NCBI GenBank assembly: GCA_964449215.1
Contig: CAYVAH010000001.1
Coordinates: 32,865-96,864, forward strand
Origin: Candidatus Undinarchaeota archaeon
GTDB lineage: Archaea; SpSt-1190
DNA: 64,000 nt
Reading direction: 5' to 3'
Shown here: one piece after another, positions 3,001 through 64,000 of the stretch
Layout: the number at the start of each line of letters is the position of its first letter
Position numbering within the stretch: position 1 is the stretch's first letter
Made by a program: the position numbers and the translations under genes
The notes under the pieces: model-generated
The model's input: the letters and a program-made list of their open reading frames with translations, nothing else
Databases searched by the model: none
What the model was told of the DNA's origin: nothing

Positions 3001-6000
3001 GACATTCAACCTCATACAACTGTGGAAGCCACCAGTCCTCCAGAATGAGACAGTGACTCCTGAGCAGGATGGAGGTTGGGGAGAAAACTTCACGTTCTCC
3101 GTGAATGTAAGTGATGAGAACGCTGAAGACGTGAATGTTAGTTTGTGGCTGAGTCCGGACAACTCAACCTGGGAGTGGATCGAAACCCAGACCTGCTATG
3201 ACTGCGGTTCAATAACTCAACTTGATTTCAATTACAGGGATTATGACTGCTCTGATAAAGGGACGCAGTATTTCAAGTTCAACGCCACCGATTCCCACAA
3301 CTCAACTGACCGAACTGGATTGAACTTCACCGTATATGCCGATGATGTCCAGTTCTTATATGAGGGCCTCTCCACAGGAAACGATACAACTGTGAACAGG
3401 TGGGCGGGACAGTTGCTGAAAATAAGGGTCTATGACCCTGACAATGAAACCTATCTGCCAGATTCTGAAAACACACGATTCTGGGTCACCACTGATGGAT
3501 CGTCCTGGGGTGCCCCGATGGACTCTCAGACAGACAGCAGTTACACCAACGTTACCTTTACACCCGACTGCAACTATCAAGTCGGTCCACAGCTCTGGAA
3601 GGTCGGGACATTCGGAAATAACTGCTACAAAGACACCAATTCCACACTCCATCTCACCACGACAATAACTGGCTACATGTCACTCACAATTGACCAGCCC
3701 TCAGGTGAAATGTTCTTTGAAGGTGATAACGTCACAACCCGTGCGAACATCACAGATGAGTGCGGGTCCCCAACAATAGCAGATGCCACCGTAGCGTTCA
3801 ACGTCTCTCATGACAGTTTTTCAGCCCAGTGCAAACCCGTGCAGAACGAAGGAACAGGATGGTATAACTGCACCTGGAACGTCACCGGGTCTCCCGGCGG
3901 CTGGTACAGCGTGGGAATGAACGCAAGCAGGCAGTATTACAACAACGCCTCCACTATCAAGACAAATGCATTCTTCCATGAGATTGCACCTGTCCTGAGC
4001 GGTGAATATGTCACACCGAATGAAAGTCACTGGGGGACGGAATACACCTTCAAAGTGAATGTGACTGATGAAGATGACACGGTAAGAGTGAAGCTGTACC
4101 ACCGAAAATGGCCATCAACGCTGTGGTCCGAAGTCGAAACGCAGTATTGCAGCGACTGTGTAAACAAGACGCTGACCTTCAAGAGGACCTACACCCAGAC
4201 CGAGATAGGGACATGGGAATGGAAGTTCACCTCAACCGACGATGATCTCTGGTTCAACACGAGCGTCCACAACCTGACTGTGAATAAGAGGAATGTTATA
4301 GTGGAATACTACAGAGGAAACGAAAGCAACGTAACAAGATACGGCGATAATTCAACGCTGTTAACACTCGTGGTCAAGGACGCCGTCTCTAACTCCCCAA
4401 TAGGTCAGGGTCTGGATGGTGGTTTTTGGGTCACGACCAACGGCACAAGTTGGGGACCCAAAATCCCGGAGTCCACCGAAGAGGGAAGCTATCTCAACCA
4501 CAGCTTCAAGCCGGACTGCACCTATCAGACAGGAAAACAGAAATGGAAGGGCGGTGTCGATGAAAGCACGTACTACTACGCCGGTAACTCCTCGGAATAT
4601 AACGTGAGCATATACTCAATAATCAACGGAACCATAAATATCCCGAATGGCACCCGAATGGTGAGGGGCAGCGTTCTGGAAATCTATGGAGATGTCGGAG
4701 ACGAGTGCCCAGGTCTTACCAAGGGTGCAACAGTGAAATACAGGATATACAAGGGAATTGAGTTCATCCCGTCACCTGACCCGGCAAACGACCTGAACAA
4801 CGGCACATACAACGCCAGCTGGGACACCACAGGAGCAGCCCTGGGATGGTACAATATTACAATGAACATCTCAAAGGAATATCATTTCGATTATTACAGG
4901 AAGAAAGTTAATGCGTTCTATCTTGGATCGGGCACGGAGCTGCGCAATCCCTGGGTGGACAACTCACAGGACGGGTGGGGGTACAACTACACCTTCAAAG
5001 TTGAGGTCAGGGATGTTGAAAACGACGTGACAAATGTGAGCCTGTGGTATTCCAATTCATCCAGCGGGCCGTGGAAGTTGATAGACTGGCAGGAGATTCA
5101 GACCACCGTGTTCGAGAATGTTACATTCCACCACAGCTTCGAGTGCCAGGACTATTTTGACGGACCCACCACATATTACAAGTTCCTGGCAAATGACTCG
5201 AATGGTTTCATGGACGAAACTTCCCCACAGACAATCATACTCGAGCAGGATGACCTAGGATTCATAATAGAATCTGGATCAGGGGCCAGCATAGACAGGG
5301 AAGGAATCAACCCGTTTACATTCATAGTCAGCATAAACGACACAGATGCTGGAAAACTCGTTGGGGAGGGATTAAATGGCAGTTTCTACTTCACATACGA
5401 TTCCACGGAATTTGATGCAGGTCACAACACGACAACCAACGCCACCGGACAGATTCTCTACGACCACGACCCGAACTGCACATACACCACAGGGGTCCAG
5501 CTGTGGTATGTATCAATGCATGACAATGCCTGCTACAAGGACACGGATATGGGAACAAGCACATATTCCGTGATAGGCCAGCTAAAGAACAACATAGACA
5601 TTCCTATATTTGGTTCGGAGTTCAACGTCACGAACCGGATACTTATAAGATTCAACGTAACATCGGACTGTGAAGAGGAAGGAGGAATAAATGACACCAG
5701 CTCTGTGGAAATAACACCGAAGCATAATGGCACAGGAACGGAATACTCCTGCAGCGAGAATAATGAAGGTGATGGTTACTACAACTGCAGCTGGGACAGC
5801 ACAGGAAAACCGGAAGGAAACTACACCATAATTCTTCAGAGTTCCAAGGGCTCCTACAATTCCAACACCACAATACTGATGAACTGGTTCTGGCTGGAAA
5901 ATCTACCAACAAACTACACCCGCCAGTGGGTCAGCCCCAGCACTGGAGGTTGGGGTGAGAAATTCCAGTTCAACGTAACCGTGAATGACACGGAAGGGGA

Positions 6001-29085: not shown

Positions 29086-30229
29086 GCCGAAGAAAGTCAA
29101 AAAGGAGGAAGAAAAGCCCGCGGAAGAGGCCCCAGAAGAAGAAGGCGGGGAACCGGCAGCAGAGGAAGGAGAAAGAACAATAGGAGATATTGTTGAGGAG
29201 GAGGGGCTTGTTTCCGAACCTGAAAGGGAGTCAATGCTCAAGCAGCAGGGGACACCTGAGCTCTCTGAAGTTCTGATGCGCATTGACAGAATTGACGGGA
29301 AGCTGGAGCTCTTCAAAGGGATGCTCGATTCCTTCAACGAAAGACTCATAGAACTCAATGAACGCCTCGGGGACACCCGCAGGATGGTCTTCGACAGGGA
29401 AAAATGGGCCTCAAAGCTCGAAACGGAGTTCGAGAAAGTGGCAGGCATTGTGAAGGAACTTGACCCGGAGAAAATCGTAATGAGGTTCGAGAAGTTCAAG
29501 ACAAGCATTGAAAAACAGAATGCAACCCTGGAAAAGCTCAACGACCTCCTGAAGAACCTATCGGAGCGGATGAAGATTGCGGAGGGGAAACTCGAGAACG
29601 TTAAGAGCCTCGAAAACGTGATGAAGGCCGGAAAGACCGTTGAGGAGAAATTGAAGAAGATTCAGGAAGCGAAGACATATACGGACAAAATATCCGCGAA
29701 GATAGAGGCGATGTTCCTCGAAACGAATGAAAGGGTCGCCATGATGAAGGAAAACCTTGATAAGATTGAAAAGCATGAGTCGATGCTGGGCGACCTGCTG
29801 AAGGAAATTGAATCACTGAAGTTCAAGATAGATGAAGAGCTCGTGAAAAAGAGGGAGGTTGAGGAACTTATTGAGTCCGCAAAAGACGTAATCATAGAAG
29901 AAATCGTTGGGATAAACCCAGTTGCTTTTGACAACCTTCGAAGGAGGGTCGCGATATTGGAGAACAAGGGAAAAAGCACCAGAGAGCTCGAAGAGGAGCT
30001 GAAGAAATACCAGACACTTATGGATCAGGTTGAAAGGGATTTCCAGATGGGGCGGATAAAGGACGAAGCCAGGAACGAGCTGAAGGCCAGCACGGAGAAA
30101 AAGATAGAAGAAATCCGGCTGGTCCTTGAGAGCAGAAAGGGTCCAAAAAAGGTTGAGGGGAAGAAAGCAAAGGGAAAGGAAACCAAGTTGAAGGAAAAAC
30201 TTCTGAGCATGGGAAAGAAATCTACTTGA
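29051..30229 (+). CDS. K/E-rich cytoplasmic coiled-coil protein (start uncertain: TTG/GTG at 29051-29066; first ATG at 29234)
   Basis: Long ORF with heptad-like K/E/L-rich sequence throughout and no TM. Overlaps the previous gene across an A-run (ggcaaaaaagaag). SD-like GGAGGTGG at 29053-29060. Confidence 0.55.
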   Translation: MEVELLAKKKTKPKKVKKEEEKPAEEAPEEEGGEPAAEEGERTIGDIVEEEGLVSEPERESMLKQQGTPELSEVLMRIDRIDGKLELFKGMLDSFNERLIELNERLGDTRRMVFDREKWASKLETEFEKVAGIVKELDPEKIVMRFEKFKTSIEKQNATLEKLNDLLKNLSERMKIAEGKLENVKSLENVMKAGKTVEEKLKKIQEAKTYTDKISAKIEAMFLETNERVAMMKENLDKIEKHESMLGDLLKEIESLKFKIDEELVKKREVEELIESAKDVIIEEIVGINPVAFDNLRRRVAILENKGKSTRELEEELKKYQTLMDQVERDFQMGRIKDEARNELKASTEKKIEEIRLVLESRKGPKKVEGKKAKGKETKLKEKLLSMGKKST

Positions 30230-33200
30230 AAACCCTCTTCAGTTCCTCGAAGGTCTCGCGGGATATCAGCCCCTCTTCATATTGGCTCTTCAGTGTTTGA
30301 AGAACGTCAGATCCCCCTTCTGCTTCCCTTTTCTTCTTCACTATTTCCTCGAGCTTCTTCATCGCCCTCCTCTGCTCCCTCCCTTTCAGTATCTTGAACT
30401 TGTTTATGGCTATCACAATCAGGAGAATCAGAGCAAATATGGAAACGGCAATCACATACCAGTTCGGTGGAACCTCCGGGAGCGTGACTGTCGGCAGATA
30501 CCTCGGTTTTGAAATCTCCAGCCGGTATTTTATCTCCTCGATGGTGTTCTCCACATCAGATATCGTCTTGATTGCATCAACAGTCTGGTCCTTCTCGAGG
30601 TAGGTTTCAGCCACATCGAGCATTTCCCTGGATTTCCTGAGGAGGGAAAGAATCTTGGTAACATCACCCCCCCTCGCAGCAACCTTACCCGCCTGGTCCT
30701 CCAGATCCATAAGCTCCTCCCGGAGGGAAGCAATCCTCGCCCGGAGAGCCTCCTCCTGTGTCTTAAACACTATAACCTTGTAGAACTCCGAAACCTCCAC
30801 TTCACGGGAAATTATACGCATCTTGGTCACGTAGGTTCGGGCCGTGGCGTCCTCAGGGATCGTGAACTTCACGACAAGGTATCCACTTGACCCGGGAGAG
30901 AGGGATGCCACCTCCCTGACAACCTCGAACCAGTCCTTGTCTATGTCCTCAAAGAAAACTGTTATGTCGGAAAGGCCAACATCCCCTGTGTTCTTCACCT
31001 CGATGGTGAGATAACCCACCGAACCGCGGTTTATTATCATCTCATCCGGGAAGACGTTGGTTATTGTGAGCTCCATCACAGCAGCCTCAACCGGTGTTAT
31101 AATCTCAGGGGGGACCTCCTCCGGCGCAGCAGCTTCCACCACCCTGAAACCCCTCGAAACCTCAAGCGGGGGGTACACTGTCGAGTAGTTCAGAAGGACG
31201 TGGAGCGAGTAGCCCCCCGCTGACTGGTTGGAGTATATGGAAAGATTTGCAGTTAACGTGCGGTTGCCCCTGGCAGGAACGAATGTCGGCCTGTCATGGA
31301 CATAGGCATAAGTTCGATTCTGTGAATCCTCAATCCAGTATGAGAGAAGAACATCCTGGTCAACATCCCCGTAGTTCTCGAGCAGTATGGTGAAATTCAG
31401 GTCCTCACCCTGTGGCACCTCTGGGTCTATGCTGATTATATCAACGTCATAGGGTCCGCCAAAACTGACGCGGAAAGCCTTGAGCTTCCTCACCTGCCTC
31501 CCCCCTTGCTCAACTATAAGCTCCGCCAGATAGTATCCGGTGGTCGTTGGGAGGCTGTGCTTCGTCTGGTAGAGCCTGCTATTGTTCGTGACGTTGAAAA
31601 GCGAAAGCGAGCTGTTCGTGAAATAAAGATTCTCGGCCGAGTCATACACGTTCAGCGTGACTTCGTCCGGTTCCACCATAGGACCATCAGTATAGACGAG
31701 AGCGTAAAAGTGTGCCTGTATCGGCTGGCTTGAGTACCACACATATCCTACATCAAACTCAACATTATATTCCTCCCTGACGGAGAAGGAATACGTGGTG
31801 CTGTGATTAACTGTCTTGTTCGCCACCGGGTCCCGGTGCGAGGCATTCACAGTTATGGTGTAGTTGCCCAAGGGAGCATCATCGGGAATTGAAAATGTTG
31901 GTATCGGCAGCACCGTTCCATCGGACTGGAGCTCGTCGTGATATCGCAGGTATCCGAGCGAGTCGTTGAGCTTTAGAGAAACATTTGCAGGTATGGGAAT
32001 CCCGGACTCATCAGTGGTGTTTATGTATATGGATGCCGTTTCTCCCGTGTAGTATGTCCGGAAACCCGTTCCCACACTCGTGTGGAGTATTGGATAAACA
32101 TACAAGGTCAGGTTCTGACGGGAATAAAGCCCAAGGTTGTCTCTCGTCTCAACCTGCAAGGTGTAGTAACCGAACTCGTTGCTGTTCCCCCAGGTCCCGG
32201 GGTATGTGAGCTCGTAGTAGTAAGTCTCATTTGATTGATTCACGAGGTTCATGTCAGATGCCTGCACCGAGCCCCGGGGAAGAAACACAACGAGTCTGGT
32301 GAAGCTCAACCCCTGCCCGGATTTATCAGTGATATTCGCATAAACCGTTATGTCTTCAAGCTCCTGCGTAATATTCTTTGACAGTGTGGCATTTATCTCG
32401 GCAAGCTCTCTTGGTATCATACTCACGTTCAAATATCTCCAGGAGGGCTGTGCGACGCCAGCACTCACATTGTATGTGGCATTATAATAGTCCCTCGCGA
32501 CTCCGGTGAGATTCCAGAGTATGACAAAGAGGTGCACGCCCTGCGCTGGAACGGTGAAGTTGGTCTCATTGGTGTATGTATAGTTGGCGCTTTCCGGGGA
32601 AACGGTGAAGTTCAGTTCCACGTTACCCGTGTTGTTGACCATAACGTCGCACATCTTCCCCTCATCGAAAGCTACCTCGGTTGTGCAGTTCTCCGGGTGG
32701 AGCTCCCAGGTCCGGGAAACGGGAACTGTAATATTCAGGTACACAAAATCGTAACCATCATCGGAGCTTGTGTAATTGGCAGTTCCGGTATAATTGCCGG
32801 GGGAATAGCCGGGGGAGACATTCACATTCGCAGTCACATCAATCACAGAGCCAACAGGAATGAAGTCTATCTCGGGATAAAACGTTATGTTGAAATCATC
32901 CAGCCCAAGCACCGTTACACTCACCCCATTCACCTGGTCATTACCGGTGTTCCTGACGGTGAAGCCACCGATATCCGTGCTCTGACCGTGTGGCGCCGAA
33001 CCGGCCACATACGCTTCGTCTATCTGAAACTCCTTGTTCGAAAGAACTTCCACAGTGATGTTCGTGGTGTTGTATGTCACCCCTATTCCGGGATTCGCCC
33101 AAGAAACATTGACAACAACAGTGTAGTTCCCGGGCGTGCTCCGCTTCACAGCAAGCTCAAATGTCCTGAAACAGAACCCACCCACCGGCACGTCACCGCA

Positions 33201-35903
33201 GTTATACCTGTTGCCAGAAACGTTCGTGAGCCAGTAGGCCTCCGGGAGCTCCAGGGTGATGTTTGTGTCGAGGGCCGGAGAAGACCCTATATTCGTCGTG
33301 TTCACAGAAACCGTGAAATTCTGAAATTTATACCACCTCATCCTGTCAGAGGTGAGGGCGGAGGGCGTGGCGTTCACGCTCATAAAAGTCTCTATTATGC
33401 TAACCTGGACAGGTATGGAATCCCAGACGCCATTCTCCGAGGACGCATTTAGAGTACCATCAAAGGTACCACGCTCATGGTCACTTGGCATATACACCCA
33501 GACCTCCACAGAAGCATTTTCACCCTGGAAAATCAAGGAAACATTTGAAGGGGTGAAATTGAAAGTCATGGTGGGTATTCCTGTGACGTTGAACGTCACA
33601 TTCTGCAACTCGAAGTTTCCTTCGGATAAGACGGTTATATTCCCCATATAGTTCCACTCGCCTGGAGCGGCAGTTATGGAAATGTTCTCCTCGGCAATCC
33701 TGAGTGAGGGATTCGGGTCCACGGAAATGTTGAACGTGGTGTTGTAGCTGTCGGTGGTGTTGTCGGAGTTCAACCAGTCCACTGTGGCATTCACAAGATA
33801 AAACCCTGGAGTTTCATTTTCGGGGACCCACACATCAAAAAACCTGATGGAAGATTGAAAGAGGTCTATCGTACCAAGCTGTTCGAAGCTCGTGTTCACC
33901 CACCAATTCCCGGGGAGATTCAGGGTAATGTTGGTCGCGTAGGCGGTGCCGTTCCCGAGGTTGGTCACATTCGCCACCATCGTGAAGTTCTGTCCTTCAG
34001 AAAGGGTCACGTTATCTATGGACTCCCTGCCGCCTGTGAAATTCAGACCGACAGTCACATCCGTCACATACGTCACTGAGGTAAAGGTGTCCTGCGCCGT
34101 CCCTGTGTTGCCAAGTCTCGTAGCATTACAGACAAGTGTGAACACACCATAGTATGAGGGGGACACGAATTCTATCAGGTATGTGCCGTTCCCATAGTCA
34201 GTTACATTTGGGTTCGCATCTGTGGAGTCATACACACAGCTTATATTCGCCCCGGGGATGTATGTGTCATTACGGTAGTTGGTAACCTCCATGGTCGCAT
34301 TTATGGTGCGATTAACGAACCCGTAGTCATTTGAAATATTGAGTGACGCAGTGTAGGTATCAAACACAAAAAAGCTGGCGGTGGTCGTGTTCAGGAGCAC
34401 GTTCTTCTGGTCCCAGGCATAAGCCGTGATATTCCACTGACCTGTCGAGTTCGACTCGTTCAGGATGAAATAATTTGTGTAGAGGTCGTCCCCTGCCTGC
34501 GAATCCCCATGACTCCCGTCGTCATAAAGGGTCAGCGACAGGTCGCCCCCCTCAGACACAATGGTCGCATTCACGAGGGTTATCAGCCCGGAATCCACGG
34601 TGGCATTAACAAAAACTGTTACATTCTCCCCGCGGTTATAGCTTGAGTGTTCCGTTGAAGCGTTCAGGAACACCTCCCATTTTTCCGAAAGAGTCTTTGA
34701 CGTTTCCTCCCTGAAAAGCAACCTGTTCCTGAGGTTCCTGACTTGGGCGTCAGTCGGAGATCCCTTGATCGCGGAAGGGCTGTTGAAATGAAGTGCTGTC
34801 ACCTCATATAGGGTCTCATCTGGCTGAACCGTCACATTGGAAAGTTCAATACCCCCCCTCCCCCAGCTGTTGTTCCTGTTGACGGAAGCATAGGGACCCG
34901 AATCCTCAACATTTATGATACCAACGTGGAAGTTCGCGAACTCCGCGGCAAACCAGAACCACGAGGCAGGCTCGGAGGCATTCCCGATTATTATGCTGTT
35001 CGTCCCTGCCCTTTTAACATCAAAGAGCAAAGCACCAGCAGGAGTGGAATTGCGGGTTATGTTATAGTCCGCCGTGTTCTTGTAAATTTGCTCCACCTTT
35101 ATCCACTGGCTCTGATTGTAGAATATGTAACGCTTCACAATTTCACCTTCTGTCTGGTTTGTGGAGTTCCATACAACTTCCTTCCCTCTTTGCTCCACCA
35201 CGAGCCTTGCAGGACCCTGATAGAGAACTGTCATGTTGTTGCGAAGGTCGAACGTAAAGTTGTGTGTGTCATTGGAATACTGCATATACTCAATGGGGTT
35301 CTCCCCCTCAGACGGAGGAGACCAGAACTCATTCTCAGCATAGTCCTTTATTCTATAGATGCCTGAAACGTTGGCGCCCCGGGAGGTGTCTATCCAGTAT
35401 TCAAGACCTTTTGTGGTTCCGGAATCCTCAATGGTCACGTTGACCTGCAGCTCCTCGCCATCCCAGCTGTACGGGATGACAGTGTAGTTGATGGCGGGCT
35501 TGCTGTCGGTGTCATAGTAGAGACAAAAGACCCTCAGCTCGTTGGCCGCGAGGGTACCGTTCATTATGAACGCCAGCGTTCCGTGAAAATTCATCGAGGC
35601 GTTGAACCCCTGACCCTCATCGAACTGGCTCGGCAGCTCGAACATGGCACTCCCGCTGGAGGGATCCTGCTCTATGAGGCGGAGTGAAGTGGCGTTGATA
35701 GTCCCGCTTCCCCCAGAAGCATTCAGCTCAGCAGTAAGGTTCAGCGGGAACTCTATTGGCCAGTCTTCGCGGGAATACTTGGAAGCATTTACTTCGATAC
35801 ACACACGGTAATCCCAGCTGGAATCCCACCACTCCAGCTTCGCAAAAGCCGGGAGAACCAAAAGAAGCAGCAGCAGGGCTACCCGAAACCTCACGGAATT
35901 CAA
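30222..35903 (-). CDS. Large surface (S-layer-like) glycoprotein, 1,893 aa, with N-terminal signal peptide, C-terminal coiled-coil stalk, TM anchor and short cytoplasmic tail (start codon TTG at 35903 or GTG at 35894)
   Basis: N-terminus (M)NSVRFRVALLLLLLVLPAFA is signal-peptide-like. Very high NxS/T density. Coiled-coil segment at aa ~1720-1810. TM is WYVIAVSIFALILLIVIAINKF. TATA-like GGCTTAAATTAAAAGCC at 35909-35925. Convergent with the giant-gene operon, with 3' ends overlapping by 8 nt. Confidence 0.75.
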   Translation of the reverse strand: MNSVRFRVALLLLLLVLPAFAKLEWWDSSWDYRVCIEVNASKYSREDWPIEFPLNLTAELNASGGSGTINATSLRLIEQDPSSGSAMFELPSQFDEGQGFNASMNFHGTLAFIMNGTLAANELRVFCLYYDTDSKPAINYTVIPYSWDGEELQVNVTIEDSGTTKGLEYWIDTSRGANVSGIYRIKDYAENEFWSPPSEGENPIEYMQYSNDTHNFTFDLRNNMTVLYQGPARLVVEQRGKEVVWNSTNQTEGEIVKRYIFYNQSQWIKVEQIYKNTADYNITRNSTPAGALLFDVKRAGTNSIIIGNASEPASWFWFAAEFANFHVGIINVEDSGPYASVNRNNSWGRGGIELSNVTVQPDETLYEVTALHFNSPSAIKGSPTDAQVRNLRNRLLFREETSKTLSEKWEVFLNASTEHSSYNRGENVTVFVNATVDSGLITLVNATIVSEGGDLSLTLYDDGSHGDSQAGDDLYTNYFILNESNSTGQWNITAYAWDQKNVLLNTTTASFFVFDTYTASLNISNDYGFVNRTINATMEVTNYRNDTYIPGANISCVYDSTDANPNVTDYGNGTYLIEFVSPSYYGVFTLVCNATRLGNTGTAQDTFTSVTYVTDVTVGLNFTGGRESIDNVTLSEGQNFTMVANVTNLGNGTAYATNITLNLPGNWWVNTSFEQLGTIDLFQSSIRFFDVWVPENETPGFYLVNATVDWLNSDNTTDSYNTTFNISVDPNPSLRIAEENISITAAPGEWNYMGNITVLSEGNFELQNVTFNVTGIPTMTFNFTPSNVSLIFQGENASVEVWVYMPSDHERGTFDGTLNASSENGVWDSIPVQVSIIETFMSVNATPSALTSDRMRWYKFQNFTVSVNTTNIGSSPALDTNITLELPEAYWLTNVSGNRYNCGDVPVGGFCFRTFELAVKRSTPGNYTVVVNVSWANPGIGVTYNTTNITVEVLSNKEFQIDEAYVAGSAPHGQSTDIGGFTVRNTGNDQVNGVSVTVLGLDDFNITFYPEIDFIPVGSVIDVTANVNVSPGYSPGNYTGTANYTSSDDGYDFVYLNITVPVSRTWELHPENCTTEVAFDEGKMCDVMVNNTGNVELNFTVSPESANYTYTNETNFTVPAQGVHLFVILWNLTGVARDYYNATYNVSAGVAQPSWRYLNVSMIPRELAEINATLSKNITQELEDITVYANITDKSGQGLSFTRLVVFLPRGSVQASDMNLVNQSNETYYYELTYPGTWGNSNEFGYYTLQVETRDNLGLYSRQNLTLYVYPILHTSVGTGFRTYYTGETASIYINTTDESGIPIPANVSLKLNDSLGYLRYHDELQSDGTVLPIPTFSIPDDAPLGNYTITVNASHRDPVANKTVNHSTTYSFSVREEYNVEFDVGYVWYSSQPIQAHFYALVYTDGPMVEPDEVTLNVYDSAENLYFTNSSLSLFNVTNNSRLYQTKHSLPTTTGYYLAELIVEQGGRQVRKLKAFRVSFGGPYDVDIISIDPEVPQGEDLNFTILLENYGDVDQDVLLSYWIEDSQNRTYAYVHDRPTFVPARGNRTLTANLSIYSNQSAGGYSLHVLLNYSTVYPPLEVSRGFRVVEAAAPEEVPPEIITPVEAAVMELTITNVFPDEMIINRGSVGYLTIEVKNTGDVGLSDITVFFEDIDKDWFEVVREVASLSPGSSGYLVVKFTIPEDATARTYVTKMRIISREVEVSEFYKVIVFKTQEEALRARIASLREELMDLEDQAGKVAARGGDVTKILSLLRKSREMLDVAETYLEKDQTVDAIKTISDVENTIEEIKYRLEISKPRYLPTVTLPEVPPNWYVIAVSIFALILLIVIAINKFKILKGREQRRAMKKLEEIVKKKREAEGGSDVLQTLKSQYEEGLISRETFEELKRVFK

Positions 35904-57439: not shown

Positions 57440-59020
57440 GTGGCAGACTGGGTCGATGAAGTCAGACAGGGCAGGGAAGAACTCTCAATAGGTTATCTGA
57501 TAAAAGCGAAGGGAAAGCGGGGCAATGTCGTCAAGAGCTACAAGAAGAACCTGGAAGCCCATATGGTGAATATGAAGGTCGATAAAGGAATCAACACGGG
57601 ACTCGTCCCACCGATGCAACCGATGATGGTCCTGCTCGAAGGGGACAACCTTGACTTTGAATCCTTCTCAAGGGACTGGATACTGAAGTTCTCCGGGACA
57701 GGTGGGTTCAGACTAAAGGCTGTGCAACTCTTCGAGAAATTTTACTACAGTGAAGCCTCACAGGTCCACGGAACGATGCTTCAAAAAATAACATACCAGA
57801 GAAACCAGGCCAAGGAGTTCCTCGCCTCCATCCAGAACCTCAAAACCGCCATAATAAACATAGAAAGCGACCTAGAAAAGCTCAACGAGCAGTTGAAGGC
57901 CTTCCAGGACGGGGACTGGGAACAGATAAAGGGGCTGTTCATAGACAACTATGGTGGACCGCAGAGGAGCTGGACCGCCATCGCAAGGAATGTCCCCCTC
58001 GTGAGAATGGCCATGACCTGGTTCCTCCGTCTGAAGGTGAAGAAATCCAGTGAGGAAGACATGCCCATAAAGGAATTTTCCAGGCTGAAGATAAACGAAA
58101 AAACCAGCCCGGATGACCTCAAGAAAATTTCCAGGAGGATAGATGAGTGCAAGAAAAGACTCGAAAAGGGTGCGAAGGAAAACAAGAAACTCATGCTCGA
58201 GGAGATTGACAAACTCGTGAAGGACGAACAGATGAACCCGGCGATAGCAAATTATCTGAAGAGAAAGATTGAGGAATTCTGGAACTGGGTGGTTGACTAT
58301 GTGAGCTGGCTTTCGCGGACCCGAAACAACATAATGAACAATCTCATCCAGCAGAAAGCCAACCTGAAGCTCTACATGAAATGGGCAGCGGACCACATAA
58401 TACAGGCCAAGAGGATGGAAATGAAACCGGAGGATGTCGTGGGGGATTTCCCGGAATTCAGTTTCAAGGGAGCACCAAAGGAAGTGCTGGCATCAGACTA
58501 TGTATTTTATGCTGATGAGGAACATAGACCGGACATATACGAGCTGTGCAGACCCTGGACACCTGTAATAATGACCTCCATTGTTATGGCAACGACCATC
58601 GAGCTTCAGAAAAAATTCATGGAAATGGGATTCATAACCTTTCATGGGTATATGCACCACCATGATGCTGAGATGCTTCCGGAACTGGCAAAGAGTGGAG
58701 GAAAGAGCCTGCTGGATGTGATGCGTGACTCCGGGGCGATAACCGATGATGAGCTGCCAAAAATATTTACACCGGAGGAAATAGAGGAGATGAAGTGGAA
58801 GGAGAAAAAAGGGAAAGAAACTTTCAAGGATAAACTCTGGTGGCTCGGGAGCGAACTGTGGGACAACTTCCAGGGTGTGCTAAGCATCTTCGGGATGGAA
58901 CTTCCGAAGCAGAGCCTTCCCTGGACCAGGGAGCGCAGGGCGGCCTCCATGGCAGCTGATCTCGCACTGAAGGGCGTAAGAGACTTCAAAAAGAGTAAAG
59001 GAATGCTGGTGGTTGAGTAA
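57440..59020 (+). CDS. Hypothetical cytoplasmic protein (526 aa) with central coiled-coil region
   Basis: Clean ATG ORF with no TM and no recognisable catalytic motifs. Confidence 0.55.
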   Translation: MADWVDEVRQGREELSIGYLIKAKGKRGNVVKSYKKNLEAHMVNMKVDKGINTGLVPPMQPMMVLLEGDNLDFESFSRDWILKFSGTGGFRLKAVQLFEKFYYSEASQVHGTMLQKITYQRNQAKEFLASIQNLKTAIINIESDLEKLNEQLKAFQDGDWEQIKGLFIDNYGGPQRSWTAIARNVPLVRMAMTWFLRLKVKKSSEEDMPIKEFSRLKINEKTSPDDLKKISRRIDECKKRLEKGAKENKKLMLEEIDKLVKDEQMNPAIANYLKRKIEEFWNWVVDYVSWLSRTRNNIMNNLIQQKANLKLYMKWAADHIIQAKRMEMKPEDVVGDFPEFSFKGAPKEVLASDYVFYADEEHRPDIYELCRPWTPVIMTSIVMATTIELQKKFMEMGFITFHGYMHHHDAEMLPELAKSGGKSLLDVMRDSGAITDDELPKIFTPEEIEEMKWKEKKGKETFKDKLWWLGSELWDNFQGVLSIFGMELPKQSLPWTRERRAASMAADLALKGVRDFKKSKGMLVVE

Positions 59021-60632: not shown

Positions 60633-61103
60633 AATCTCGGTCACATAGGACTCTATTCTGTCCAGCAGTTCCTCCAGGACATACCGCCGAAAGACCCTGA
60701 AAGCCACTGAAAGATCCCCTTCTGCCAGCCTGTAATTCTTTCTCCCCTCAACAAGCCTCAGGGCCTTCAGCCGTTCGAGATGATACCTGACTGCAGATGG
60801 TGTTATTTTTGCCATTTGGGCCAGTTCAGTGACCGAAACAGAGCTTTTCTGTAGAAACGCCCGGAATATTGCCTCCAGGGGGCTCTTTGAGTCACCCGGG
60901 CGGATAAGCCCCATAGAAAGCAAAAAAACACGCAAATCTCTTTCAGCATTCCCGCTCGGGGGTTCATATTTTCTCAGTGTAATTTCAAATATTGGCGAAT
61001 CTCCCATAATATTTCGCAGGTCGGCGAAACTATTAAGGTTTGCCTCCAGAGCACGCCTAAAGGTGATTGTGCGTGAGCCATTCCCGGGAACCCTATTCCG
61101 CAC
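60618..61103 (-). CDS. ArsR-family winged-HTH transcriptional regulator
   Basis: VSVTELAQMAKITPSAVRYHLERLKALRLVE matches the ArsR/SmtB HTH signature. Confidence 0.7.
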   Translation of the reverse strand: MRNRVPGNGSRTITFRRALEANLNSFADLRNIMGDSPIFEITLRKYEPPSGNAERDLRVFLLSMGLIRPGDSKSPLEAIFRAFLQKSSVSVTELAQMAKITPSAVRYHLERLKALRLVEGRKNYRLAEGDLSVAFRVFRRYVLEELLDRIESYVTEISSLR

Positions 61104-61119
61104 AACCCTGAAAAAGTAT

Positions 61120-61215
61120 TTATATGTGCGAAAATTTACACATTATGTCCGAAAAATGCTGTTTTACCAAGAGGGGGTAGAAATTTCGGAAAAACAGCGA
61201 AAAATTTCGCGGAAC
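61120..61215. promoter_or_regulatory. Divergent promoter/operator region between ArsR-family and wHTH regulator genes with repeated CGAAAAAT/AAATTTCG motifs and strong SD (GGGAGGTGG)
   Basis: Direct and inverted copies read directly: gcgaaaattt (61127), ccgaaaaatg (61150), gaaatttcggaaaaacagcgaaaaatttcgcgg (61180-61212). Confidence 0.4.
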
Positions 61216-61226
61216 AGGGAGGTGGT

Positions 61227-61613
61227 TTGATGCTCGAAATAGCTGTAAATGAAGTGCCACTTTCTGGAATAAAGTCTGCTGAACAGCTTGCGGCCTTCGT
61301 GCTGAAGTCTCTCGGTCTATCAGATCTCAATGACGAAAGGGATGTGGACATCCTGATAGCCTTCATAAGGAATAAAGGAGGGTTGAAGGTATACGAGCTA
61401 AAGGAGATTGCCGGGCTGGGGCAGACCGCCACATACTCAAGAATAAAGAAGTTCCTGAATGCGGGGCTCATCTACAAGGCCAAAGGCTCAGTCTATCGCC
61501 TCCGGGAAAGAACCCTGAAGGACACCCTGGACTTCCGCGTGCGCAAGGATATTGAAAGAGTTTTTAACAGCATAGTGGAGGTTAGCGAGGAACTGGAAAA
61601 GAAAATCAAGTAA
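61227..61613 (+). CDS. Winged-HTH transcriptional regulator (128 aa)
   Basis: HTH-like LKVYELKEIAGLGQTATYSRIKKFLNAGLIYKAKG. Confidence 0.5.
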   Translation: MMLEIAVNEVPLSGIKSAEQLAAFVLKSLGLSDLNDERDVDILIAFIRNKGGLKVYELKEIAGLGQTATYSRIKKFLNAGLIYKAKGSVYRLRERTLKDTLDFRVRKDIERVFNSIVEVSEELEKKIK

Positions 61614-61780
61614 ATTTCCACAAAAAACTATTTTGTTTTTACAAATAGATGTTTGCCACAAAACTTGAAAAGTTGCTGAAAAACACATATAATTCCTGCG
61701 AGCTATACGAAAAATAGGCAAAACTGTAAGCACTTGGAAAGGACAAACGAAGGCAGCGGCACACAAAAAACACGGCTGAC

Positions 61781-61853
61781 AGCCCCGTGGTGTAGTGGTC
61801 AAGCATGCGGGACTTTGGATCCCGAGACCCCGGTTCGAATCCGGGCGGGGCTA
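61781..61853 (+). tRNA. tRNA-Gln (anticodon TTG)
   Basis: Acceptor AGCCCCG/CGGGGCT, anticodon stem CGGGA/TCCCG with loop CT-TTG-GA, T-arm CCCGG-TTCGAAT-CCGGG, discriminator A. Confidence 0.7.
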
Positions 61854-61924
61854 TCCCGGACAGGGCGCACCCGGAGTCACAAGTTCTTATAAAAAACAAA
61901 AAACTTTTTAGAGCAGACTCTTTG

Positions 61925-62030
61925 AGCTTCGTTGACATCAATTAACCCAGATTGACGCTCAATAACGTCAAAAATCAAACCAATTTGACGTCATTTGCGC
62001 TCATTGCAGGGATTTGATGTTAATATCAAT
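61925..62030. repeat. Iteron-like array of TTGAC...CAAT(A/T)AAC direct repeats and a TGACGTCA palindrome downstream of tRNA-Gln and upstream of the helicase gene
   Basis: TTGACatCAATtAAC (61932), TTGACgctCAATAAC (61952, 20 bp later), TTGACGTCAtttgcgctCATTGC (61985, containing palindrome TGACGTCA). Inverted repeat TTGACG-n8-CGTCAA at 61952-61971. Confidence 0.5.
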
Positions 62031-62173
62031 CTCAAATAAGGGCAAATAAGGTCAAGTAAGCGTAAAAGAGCTCAATGATGTTAGTGATTTCTGTTTCTGT
62101 TAAGTGAATTTTTGCATGTCACCATCAGGTAGATTATTCCACTTATAAAGAACCCCAATTTGTGAGAGTTATT

Positions 62174-64000
62174 ATGAGTGGTGATGATGTCTTTGAGCTC
62201 GTTGGACACAGAATTGTGAGAGCTTTTGGGCTGGAAAGGCCCACCAGGGTGCAGAAAGTGAGCATTCCGGAGCTTTTGAGAGGGAAAGAATGCCTCATTG
62301 TGGCAGAAACTGGAAGCGGAAAAACAGAAGCGGTAATGATACCAATACTAAAAATGCTTCCAAGAGAGCCCCTGGCCTGCATTTATGTAACTCCCCTGCG
62401 CGCGCTGAATCGGGATATATTCACCCGGATGAAAAAAGCCTGTGAATCCCTGGACTTCAAAATAGAAACCCGCCATGGAGACACCAGCCAACGTGCACGC
62501 CATGAACAGCTCAAAGATCCGCCAAACATACTGGTTACAACTCCTGAAACCCTGCAGGCAATACTCGTCGCACCAAAGTTCCGGCAATACCTGAGAAACA
62601 CCCGCTTTGTTGTCGTTGACGAAATTCATGAACTTCTGGACAACAAGCGCGGGCCGCAGCTCGCATGTGCCATCGCCAGATTGAGACGCGTGGCCAACTT
62701 CAAATTACACGGGCTGTCCGCAACAATCTCGGAACCAAAAAAGGTTGCCGCATACTTCTGGGGTGAAAATGTCAAAACGATAGTCAGCAAAGATGAAAAG
62801 GTTAAGGAAATCACGGTCGAAGTTCCAGGATGCACGGAAGAAGATTCCGCAACCTCAAGAGAGTCAGGTATGCCGCTGCAAACTGTGGCAAAACTGCGAC
62901 GCATCAATGAGCTCATTTCAAGAAGCACAATAATCTTCACAAACACAAGAAGCACGGCTGAGATTTTAACCAGCCGGTTGAAAAGATTAATTAACATCAA
63001 AGTGCATCACGGAAGTCTCAGCAAGGAACACAGGGAGTCTGTGGAGAAGGAATTCAAAGAGGGTATAATTGACAAAGTCGTTTCCACCAGCTCACTCGAG
63101 CTCGGGATTGATGTGGGCCACGTGGAGCAGGTAATACAATATGGCTCACCCCGCAGGGCGGATGCATTCACACAAAGGGTCGGGAGGAGCGGACACTTCA
63201 TCCACAGAAAATCGCGGGGGGTCATCATATGTGATGTTGGAGAGGCTGCGGAAAGCGCTGTGATCGCAAGAAGAGTTTTGAGCGGGGAACTCGAACCAAT
63301 CGAAACCATGGAGTGCCCCCTGGATGTCCTGGCGCATCAGCTCGTCGGACTAGTACTGGAAGAACGCGAAGTGTCCATTCCCGAGGCAGTCCAACTCTTC
63401 AAGTCCACCTGGGTTTTCAGAAAACTGACCATGGAAGATTTCATGAGAACTCTCACACTACTCGAACAGCTGGGGTATATCAGAAGAGATGGGGACTTCT
63501 ACCGGAGACGGGTAAGGGCGTGGAAATACTACTACAACAACATATCAACAATCCCAGATGAACGAAAGTGCAAGCTCATAGACAGCACCACAAGAAGGCC
63601 CATCGCCACCCTGGATGCTGAATTTGTTGAAGAGCTGCAACCTGGAGAGCGCTTTGTGGTCGCGGGCACCACATGGAGTGTCGTGAGCAAGGAAGGGGAC
63701 CGCCTGTTCGCCACAAACACCGGGGAAACTGATGCAGTAGCCACGTGGTCCGGGGAGCTCATCCCCGTGGACTTCTCAGTCGCCAGGGAGATCCCGGACG
63801 CCATAAACTCGCCAGAAAAATATCCCCTTGAAAAAAGGACCGCCGAAGAGGTAAAAAAGCTGGGGGAATACTCTAAAAACATCAGGGTAGAGACCCACAG
63901 AGACCTCACCATAATAATTACCTGGGCGGGGAACAAGGTCAACAACACACTTGCTCACATTATAGGGGCTTTCCTCGCAGCACAGTTTGGAGAAAACGTG
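62174..64000 (+). CDS. lhr: Lhr-type ATP-dependent DEAD/DExH-box helicase (3' end beyond window; not in supplied ORF track because no in-window stop)
   Basis: Translated by hand from ATG 62174. Motif I AETGSGKT, Ib TPLRAL, DExH VVVDEIHEL, motif VI QRVGRSGH. ~609 codons open to the window end. Confidence 0.8.
   Translation, partial: MSGDDVFELVGHRIVRAFGLERPTRVQKVSIPELLRGKECLIVAETGSGKTEAVMIPILKMLPREPLACIYVTPLRALNRDIFTRMKKACESLDFKIETRHGDTSQRARHEQLKDPPNILVTTPETLQAILVAPKFRQYLRNTRFVVVDEIHELLDNKRGPQLACAIARLRRVANFKLHGLSATISEPKKVAAYFWGENVKTIVSKDEKVKEITVEVPGCTEEDSATSRESGMPLQTVAKLRRINELISRSTIIFTNTRSTAEILTSRLKRLINIKVHHGSLSKEHRESVEKEFKEGIIDKVVSTSSLELGIDVGHVEQVIQYGSPRRADAFTQRVGRSGHFIHRKSRGVIICDVGEAAESAVIARRVLSGELEPIETMECPLDVLAHQLVGLVLEEREVSIPEAVQLFKSTWVFRKLTMEDFMRTLTLLEQLGYIRRDGDFYRRRVRAWKYYYNNISTIPDERKCKLIDSTTRRPIATLDAEFVEELQPGERFVVAGTTWSVVSKEGDRLFATNTGETDAVATWSGELIPVDFSVAREIPDAINSPEKYPLEKRTAEEVKKLGEYSKNIRVETHRDLTIIITWAGNKVNNTLAHIIGAFLAAQFGENV

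Follow-up and report, generated by a model that had tools for sequence, protein, structure and literature searches.

A conserved array of short palindromic boxes upstream of lhr in a compact archaeal genome, a candidate multi-site protein-binding element

Introduction

The operators of MetJ in Escherichia coli are built of tandem 8-bp 'metboxes' (AGACGTCT), and in archaea Ss-LrpB recognizes the palindrome TTGYAW-WWW-WTRCAA, which is present as three 15-bp boxes with a 5-bp A/T center at the regulator's own gene. The core of the MetJ site is ACGT, and the ribbon-helix-helix protein ParG coats arrays of regularly spaced, short, degenerate boxes, which occur in centromeres as well as in operators (PMC3413123). 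Archaeal origin recognition boxes (ORBs) and mini-ORBs contain a core of perfectly conserved TTCC and GAA motifs, for example TTCCAGTGGAACT (PMC1904270). Here, we describe an array of about 12 short palindromic boxes in the 320-nt spacer between the genes for tRNA-Gln and the helicase Lhr on a 64,000-nt stretch of contig CAYVAH010000001.1 from a Candidatus Undinarchaeota archaeon (the whole stretch is hereafter called the window). An earlier note, made from the letters of this DNA alone, had pointed to repeats in the spacer and offered three candidates, namely a multi-site operator of the helicase gene, an attachment or recombination site next to the tRNA, and a small origin-like element. The first of these is the one that we favor below; the tRNA attachment site and an origin of the ORB/mini-ORB type were not borne out. 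The literature on archaeal Lhr reports neither a conserved genomic context nor such an element (PMC8301817).

We regard the array as a further example of a type of cis-element that is already known. Like the MetJ operators, it consists of short palindromic boxes with an ACGT-type center (here TTG-ACGT-CAA and variants) that are arranged head-to-tail, presumably with one dimer per box and cooperativity between neighbors. It differs from them in the length of the unit (9–10 bp against 8 bp), in the number of copies (about 12 against 2–5), in its position upstream of the promoter instead of over it, and in its archaeal host, and its surroundings yielded no ribbon-helix-helix gene, MetJ-like or otherwise. 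The sites of ParG (TP228), ParR (R1 parC), and omega (pSM19035) resemble the array in having many short degenerate boxes at fixed spacing; they are coated cooperatively by dimers that accept both direct and inverted orientations, and they act as operator, centromere, or both. Those sites belong to plasmid partition loci with an adjacent parA/parF-type ATPase gene and a binder gene, whereas the present array is chromosomal, has another box sequence, and has no partition ATPase or ribbon-helix-helix gene within reach. With archaeal Lrp-type control regions such as that of Ss-LrpB, the array shares half-sites that start with TTG and several regularly spaced palindromes upstream of an archaeal promoter, which are bound cooperatively in the case of Lrp; its boxes, however, are 10 bp long with a 2-bp center, number about 12, and have no adjacent Lrp gene. 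Similar to ORB/mini-ORB clusters, it is an intergenic, A/T-rich set of repeated elements, some of them inverted, that is conserved in its lineage and located near replication genes. Unlike these clusters, whose elements are 13–36 bp long with a TTCC...GAA dyad as the core (PMC1904270), it is made of 10-bp palindromes, lacks that core, and has no adjacent orc1/cdc6.

A cluster of 10-bp palindromes in the tRNA-Gln/lhr spacer

The window is archaeal chromosomal DNA that codes for thermosome, histone, aminoacyl-tRNA synthetases, and DNA glycosylases. It is extremely compact, with a total of 1932 intergenic nt per 64,000 nt (~97% coding), and the tRNA-Gln/lhr spacer is its longest intergenic stretch. 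The spacer has a G+C content of 37%, compared with ~50% across the window, in agreement with its earlier description as AT-rich. The retention of the longest intergenic stretch in such a compact genome argues for a function of the spacer.

The words singled out in the earlier note were read directly. TTGAC occurs at 61932, 61952, and 61985, the inverted repeat TTGACG-n8-CGTCAA at 61952-61971, the palindrome TGACGTCA at 61986-61993, and GCTCA(A/T)T at 61957, 61999, and 62070, all as had been described. The composite element TTGAC-n3-CA(A/T)T-AAC, which had been proposed for all three TTGAC copies, is exact for the second copy, whereas the first has n2 (TTGAC-AT-CAAT-TAAC) and the third is without AAC. 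All of the tested words were above expectation in 5000 dinucleotide-preserving shuffles of the spacer: TTGAC (3 vs. 0.33 expected, P=0.004), TTGAC or GTCAA (5 vs. 1.05, P=0.004), GCTCAWT (3 vs. 0.05, P<0.0002), TGACGTCA (1 vs. 0.01, P=0.006), and T[AG]A-NN-TCA (5 vs. 0.37, P<0.0002). Because these tests were post hoc, the decisive support comes from the conservation of the repeats in relatives.

For this comparison, we used contigs of nine other species-level relatives, which were found through their Lhr protein homologs (43–73% identical, ~878 aa long). When genome and metagenome collections were scanned with Lhr peptides, the only matches were to the same strain or an unrelated bacterium, and two contigs that are 100% identical to the window (L002 and L003) were uninformative. 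The NCBI labels of the relatives are inconsistent (Aenigmatarchaeota, Altiarchaeota, or Bathyarchaeota).

Word counts and a position matrix across the spacers indicate that the repeating unit is a 10-bp palindrome, TTRA-NN-TCAW (T-T-R-A-n-n-T-C-A-W), with the ideal form TTGA-NN-TCAA. The words TTGAC, CAAT, GCTCAAT, TTGACG-n8-CGTCAA, and TGACGTCA are pieces of one box or of two adjoining boxes. The units are thus short palindromes rather than direct repeats of 17–22 bp, and the term 'iteron-like' used earlier does not fit them; plasmid-type iterons were also rejected on the lack of a rep gene and of plasmid or phage similarity.

Box matches were scored over the eight fixed positions of TTRA-NN-TCAW, with cut-offs of at least 7/8 and at least 6/8. 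The array in the window (61932-62075) contains 8 boxes at the stricter cut-off, for which shuffles gave a mean of 1.35 and a maximum of 6, and 12 boxes at the looser one. Each of the 10 species-level loci has 6–14 boxes at ≥7/8, compared with 0.9–2.4 in dinucleotide shuffles (P≤0.001 each). The cluster is also unique in its neighborhood: the box density is 8 per 200 nt in the window spacer and at most 3 anywhere else in the 64 kb, and in every relative the spacer reaches 6–12 boxes per 200 nt against no more than 4 elsewhere in the ~10-kb locus. No boxes were found in the promoters of the DNA-repair genes of the window (glycosylases, nuclease), and hence no regulon is visible there.

A perfect tandem pair of boxes (TTRANNTCAWTTRANNTCAW) is present in none of the loci, indicating that the array is built of degenerate boxes, most of which abut or overlap one another. 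Among 89 spacings between adjacent boxes, 17 are 9 bp, 20 are 10 bp, and 12 are 19–20 bp; with 37/89 spacings of 9 or 10 bp, the array consists of many short boxes at a fixed short center-to-center distance, as is characteristic of ribbon-helix-helix sites. The distances from TCAW to TCAW peak at 10, 20, and 30 bp and also at 6, 16, and 26 bp, and the centers of the two half-sites within a box are 6 bp apart. Five units at 62026-62075 are in exact 10-bp register, and the phase slips between runs.

The leftmost box, TTGACATCAA (61932..61941), matches TTRA-NN-TCAW at 8/8 positions, and L010, L013, and L014 have a box at the same column. It is followed by the 20-bp dyad TTGACGCTCAATAACGTCAA (61952..61971), which comprises two adjoining boxes at 61953-61962 (6/8) and 61962-61971 (7/8), and by the tandem boxes TTGACGTCAT (8/8, including TGACGTCA) and TTGCGCTCAT (7/8), which are located 10 bp apart at 61985..62004 and also form the left arm of the inverted repeat I2. 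The 16-bp palindrome TTGATGTTAATATCAA (62014..62029) is made of two overlapping boxes that begin at 62014 and 62020, and it sits at the center of a ~70-bp imperfect dyad at 61985-62055 (inverted repeats I2 and I11). The most conserved box, ATCAATCTCAA (62025-62035), which we call the anchor box, lies within the run 62025..62075. After the anchor box, the units TCAATCTCAA, ATAAGGGCAA, ATAAGGTCAA, GTAAGCGTAA, and AAGAGCTCAA continue in exact 10-bp register to 62075 (direct repeat D11). A 19-nt direct repeat (D1, 61919 vs. 62190) was set aside as chance; its second copy codes for VFELVGH of Lhr and is not repeated in the relatives. No conserved small open reading frame (ORF) was found in the array, and the 10-bp period together with non-triplet indels excludes a coding function.

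Long imperfect inverted repeats are found in all relatives because the boxes themselves are palindromic. Another explanation considered was a small noncoding RNA of ~190 nt on either strand, in which the repeats would act as structural or protein-binding RNA motifs. On the + strand, the RNA would start at a TATA-like sequence (TTATAAAA) at 61887; on the - strand, transcription would leave the symmetric TATA box of lhr in the divergent direction and stop at the T6GT6 run around 61895-61908. The array is in fact flanked by TATA-like and T-rich stretches, and a long hairpin between 61985-62005 and 62035-62055 is predicted for either strand, with a few pairs in which both partners have changed. 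The apparent long-range pairs, however, arise automatically when both arms contain palindromic boxes, a single 10-bp palindrome, having just 2 nt at its center, is unable to form a hairpin alone, and a spacing of 9–10 bp reflects duplex DNA. Folding is weak, with z-scores of -1.9 and -1.7, and the consensus fold amounts to -14 to -19 kcal/mol for ~210 nt with a positive (unfavorable) alifold covariation term. Apart from the tRNA, Rfam gave no match in the window or the nine relatives, and in most relatives other bases interrupt the T-rich stretch that follows the array. We consider an RNA at this site improbable.

Conservation of the half-sites

The window and its relatives have diverged far enough for neutral positions to be saturated: the four-fold sites of lhr are only 27–38% identical. 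Alignment of the window spacer with those of L010–L015 nevertheless gave z scores of 15–65 over shuffles. In the six aligned species, the half-site positions of the boxes are 77% identical to the window, compared with 47% for the central NN and 53% for the other positions of the array. In the same comparison, the segment from the TATA box to the ATG is 77% identical and the tRNA 92%. The run 62025..62075 is particularly well kept, with 74–92% identity across the six species in its 10-nt bins. Ribbon-helix-helix sites are characterized by selection on the contacted bases rather than on the spacer bases, and the difference between 77% and 47% follows this pattern. The alignment shows purifying selection on the box half-sites.

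The column of TGACGTCA illustrates this pattern, as TGA-NN-TCA is kept while the center reads CG, TG, GC, TA, CG, and GC in the six species. A cAMP-response-element (CRE)/basic leucine zipper (bZIP) site at this palindrome was rejected on the same column, where the 8-mer is not conserved and only TGA-NN-TCA is; to our knowledge, archaea are without bZIP factors. In L019, L062, and L063, which are too distant to align, the boxes persist at new positions, as expected for clusters of binding sites that turn over.

The conservation and the phasing also bear on the possibility that archaeal histones are strongly positioned by the array, with the shape and flexibility of the DNA, and not the recognition of particular bases, as the cue. 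A/T-rich half-sites and G/C-richer centers alternating every 10 bp would then wrap a histone multimer upstream of lhr. The clade has histone genes, and the runs of units do show a 10-bp periodicity with AATT at the junctions and GC, CA, TG, or TA in the centers. On the other hand, it is particular bases that are conserved (T, C, and A of TCA and the A of TTRA), as seen in the higher identity of the half-sites than of the centers, and a 19-nt stretch (AATATCAATCTCAAATAAG) is nearly invariant. The phasing breaks every few boxes, and nothing comparable to the array is found elsewhere in the 64 kb. In our judgment, histone positioning is a very improbable explanation.

Fixed spacing between the array and the lhr promoter

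The TATA box TTATAAA (62143..62149, + strand) is invariant in the six aligned species and starts 31 nt before the lhr ATG at 62174; the distance between them is 31 nt in five species. By analogy with the architecture of archaeal promoters, it would act as the lhr promoter. The conserved sequence TTTGTGAGAG (62159..62168, + strand), in which GTGAGAG begins 19 nt after the start of the TATA box, surrounds the expected transcription start and may be an initiator or a proximal operator. On the upstream side, the array is followed by a conserved promoter-proximal block, AAGAGCTCAATGATGTTAGTGATTTCTGTTTCTG (62066..62099; consensus GAGCTCAWTGATGTYAKTGWTTTCCGTATCT; 58–78% identity), which the partial contigs L017 and L018 also carry, and by a linker (62100..62141) that is conserved in length but not in sequence (42% identity to the window in the six species).

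The distance from the anchor box to the lhr TATA box is 118–120 bp in six species even though 42 bp of this interval are unconserved. On the tRNA side, the spacing is looser, with 171–193 bp between the end of the tRNA and the anchor box.

The most distant relative, L063, has an inverted tRNA gene and an inserted D-aminoacyl-tRNA deacylase gene, so that a gene separates the tRNA from the array; the boxes are still located upstream of lhr. There, the array is followed by a TATA-like sequence (TTTAAATA) and, 19 nt later, by GTGAGTG, which is the same spacing as in the window. Between this module and the annotated lhr start of L063, there is a G+C- and purine-rich segment of ~340 nt (3640-4000) with extra GTGAG(A/T)G copies, two more boxes (3769-3787), and an alternative GTG start at 3905. 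It has no match in Rfam; possible explanations are a long leader, an insertion, and duplication of the promoter.

In eight relatives, the tRNA-Gln gene occupies the same position as in the window, and the synteny of tRNA-Gln and lhr, which the earlier note had suggested checking, is kept in these species. The position of the array also bears on the proposed attachment site or scar of an integrative element targeting tRNA-Gln. The spacer does adjoin a tRNA gene, and the contigs of some relatives end here. However, the window contains no duplicated tRNA 3' end within its 64 kb and no integrase in its gene scans, blastn of plasmids and phages found nothing, and there is no plasmid, phage, or viral-contig similarity beyond chance 16-mers. 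All relatives have the array at this place, and in L063 it accompanies lhr and not the tRNA. This explanation is effectively refuted already, and we regard it as scarcely credible. An invariant 16-mer of the spacer gave 41 hits in a scan of viral contigs, none of them with a box cluster, and these matches were put down to chance.

Proposed function and candidate binders

We propose that the spacer core (61932-62099) is a cis-acting array of about 12 boxes on double-stranded DNA, which would be a cooperative multi-site protein-binding element stereospecifically linked to the lhr promoter. From the DNA sequence and its comparison among relatives, we give this proposal roughly even chances of being correct. 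What favors an operator with multiple sites, as had been suggested earlier, is the combination of palindromic units, conserved half-sites with a free center, the 9–10-bp spacing, and the rigid distance of 118–120 bp to the TATA box. A dimeric sequence-specific protein would read both 4-bp half-sites of a box within one turn of the helix. Neighboring dimers would be in contact and coat ~170 bp as a cooperative nucleoprotein complex, which would stop a constant distance short of the lhr TATA box on its upstream side and set the activity of the promoter by either activation or repression. Because the half-sites are 6 bp apart from center to center and the units recur every 9–10 bp, the boxes fit recognition by a ribbon-helix-helix-like or similarly compact protein better than recognition by a helix-turn-helix dimer of the classical kind.

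Several neighboring genes encode possible regulators, and the synteny of three winged-helix genes is conserved. The closest is the gene upstream of tRNA-Gln (61230-61613, + strand), which encodes a 127-aa Lrs14/MarR/TrmB-like winged-helix protein that is conserved at 62–87% identity, better than Lhr. The case for this protein as the binder is weakened because its own promoter region carries a different palindrome, as described below. Two boxes precede a distant homolog of the 127-aa gene, in L063 only.

A number of observations weigh against the proposed operator function. No ribbon-helix-helix gene was found in the window (Pfam scans) or within 4 kb in the relatives, although a binder may be encoded elsewhere, and the divergent control region between the ArsR-like gene (- strand) and the 127-aa gene (+ strand), at 61008-61229, contains a different conserved palindrome (GCGAAAWWTTTCGC) and no boxes. 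The array is unusually long for an archaeal regulator, it lies 45–210 bp upstream of the TATA box instead of over it, and in L063 it is ~430 nt away from the annotated lhr start. It gives no array-wide 10-bp Fourier peak, and the phasing is confined to runs of 2–5 boxes. Finally, the synteny of the whole block is kept in most relatives, and the linkage specifically to lhr relies mainly on the fixed spacing and on L063.

The region 61008-61229 holds several copies of GCGAAA(W)(W)TTTCGC (e.g., GAAATTTCGG...GCGAAAAATTTCGCG), which are also present in nine relatives. This palindrome is probably the operator of the ArsR-like or the 127-aa regulator.

The window comes from one of the uncultivated archaeal lineages with compact genomes, about whose gene regulation very little is known. 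The array is a cis-element with a clear grammar that has been retained in species whose Lhr is from 73% down to 43% identical, in genomes with almost no noncoding DNA. It provides a concrete bait for finding the binding protein and would be a first handle on the control of an archaeal Lhr (aLhr1-type) repair helicase.

A chromosome-level element as an alternative

A different explanation is that the array is a chromosome-level element, such as a non-ORB origin, a centromere-like site, or an architectural site, on whose boxes an initiator, partition, or chromatin protein would polymerize; its proximity to lhr would be incidental or secondary. The general features of the spacer are compatible with this explanation. 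It is the longest intergenic region in a 97%-coding 64 kb, is A/T-rich relative to its surroundings, and carries a single cluster of more than 10 repeated boxes that look like protein sites and are conserved across a deep clade. The ~70-bp imperfect dyad (I2 and I11) surrounds an A/T-rich center, and long imperfect inverted repeats recur in all relatives. Genes close by code for a histone, a histone-fold-like 56-aa protein, and, ~4.5 kb downstream in the relatives, PolD DP2. Arrays of short boxes coated by ribbon-helix-helix proteins are known as plasmid centromeres (PMC3413123), and the contigs of three relatives break at the array locus.

The comparison with ORB/mini-ORB elements, which the earlier note had recommended, turned out negative. 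The ORB core (TTCC...GGAA; PMC1904270), searched as the pattern TTCCNNNGGAA, has 0 matches on either strand of the 64-kb window and hence none in the spacer. Pfam scans found no orc1/cdc6 among the window genes, and there is none among the called genes within 4 kb in nine relatives; parA and segA are likewise absent from the window and these flanks, as is a rep gene from the window and the relatives' flanks. A long unwinding element is not evident: the A/T-rich center of the dyad, around which a 21-nt imperfect inverted repeat (I2) is arranged, measures only 29 bp, which would be short for this purpose, and inverted repeats of this sort are expected from palindromic boxes anyway. The cumulative GC skew shows gene-orientation effects only. 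A promoter element would be expected to keep a rigid distance such as the 118–120 bp to the lhr TATA box, whereas neither an origin nor a centromere requires it. Taken together, we consider a chromosome-level element in the broad sense unlikely. The narrower possibility that the array is the chromosomal origin of the clade or its centromere-like partition or chromatin-nucleation site, with TTGA-NN-TCAA boxes in place of ORBs and a reader other than Orc1/Cdc6, seems to us more doubtful still. If the array were an origin or a centromere, it would represent a new type of archaeal chromosome element, and the fixed lhr spacing would reflect a coupling of helicase expression to the site.

Flanking transcription units and gene neighborhood

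The left edge of the spacer is formed by tRNA-Gln with the anticodon UUG (61781..61853, + strand), which was identified by ARAGORN and by Rfam (tRNA, 66.4 bits). It is followed by an A/T-rich trailer, TTCTTATAAAAAACAAAAAACTTTTTAGAG (61884..61912), with a T5 run on the + strand (61905-61909) and T6GT6 on the - strand. The block TTTGTAAAAACAAAAAAGTTTTT within the trailer is conserved in the alignment of the relatives. At 61887-61909, the trailer is an inverted copy of an A/T-only hairpin and T-run that follows the gene upstream of the tRNA, at 61622-61644 (inverted repeats I1 and I3). Inverted copies of the hairpin and T-run (ACAAA...TTTGTTTTT) thereby flank the tRNA transcription unit, and they are conserved in the relatives. 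Judged by sequence features, the trailer is probably a bidirectional terminator, and the two copies resemble intrinsic terminators of a partly bidirectional kind.

The only conserved TATA-like element upstream of tRNA-Gln is ACATATAAT at 61685-61693, ~95 nt before the mature 5' end. It implies a leader of ~65 nt, within which a conserved block, CACTTGGAAAGGACAAAC, is located at 61731-61748. The segment 61685-61780 could belong to an extended leader of the tRNA or to a small RNA that is co-transcribed with it. At the orthologous position, L062 has tRNA-Gln with the anticodon CUG instead of UUG (3606-3681), and the tRNA-Gln of L063 (2519-2591, opposite strand) also has CUG.

On the right side, lhr (62174..64000, + strand) exceeds the window. 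Its translation is an archaeal Lhr-type superfamily 2 (SF2) helicase with the Pfam domains DEAD, Helicase_C, and WH_Lhr. The gene order common to eight relatives begins with a 526-aa protein, a histone, DUF373, a small winged-helix protein, an ArsR-like protein (opposite strand), and the 127-aa winged-helix protein, and it continues with tRNA-Gln, the spacer of ~300–355 nt, lhr, NAC, a 56-aa protein, TruD, and PolD DP2. Three independent assemblies of relatives break inside or beside the tRNA-Gln/array region (L011 at its start, L017 at 1-98, and L018 at 1-165), which could result from strain heterogeneity, repeats, or the tRNA.

The conserved 56-aa gene between NAC and TruD (L014 7126-7296, - strand) has orthologs in L011, L013, L015, L017, L018, L020, and L062. 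Its product ends with NGRKTLKAVDL at the C-terminus and has weak matches to DUF1931 and the archaeal histone fold, suggesting that it may be a truncated histone-fold protein. The PolD DP2 of L062 contains inteins. The 526-aa protein that heads the syntenic block in all relatives (57440-59020 in the window, + strand) is without a Pfam or NCBIfam family. Farther upstream, the window contains a 1893-aa ORF with NPCBM_assoc/MG2-like domains (30222-35903, - strand) and a single ORF of at least 9461 codons (2-28387, + strand), which is open at the left end of the window and corresponds to a giant protein gene of more than 28 kb.

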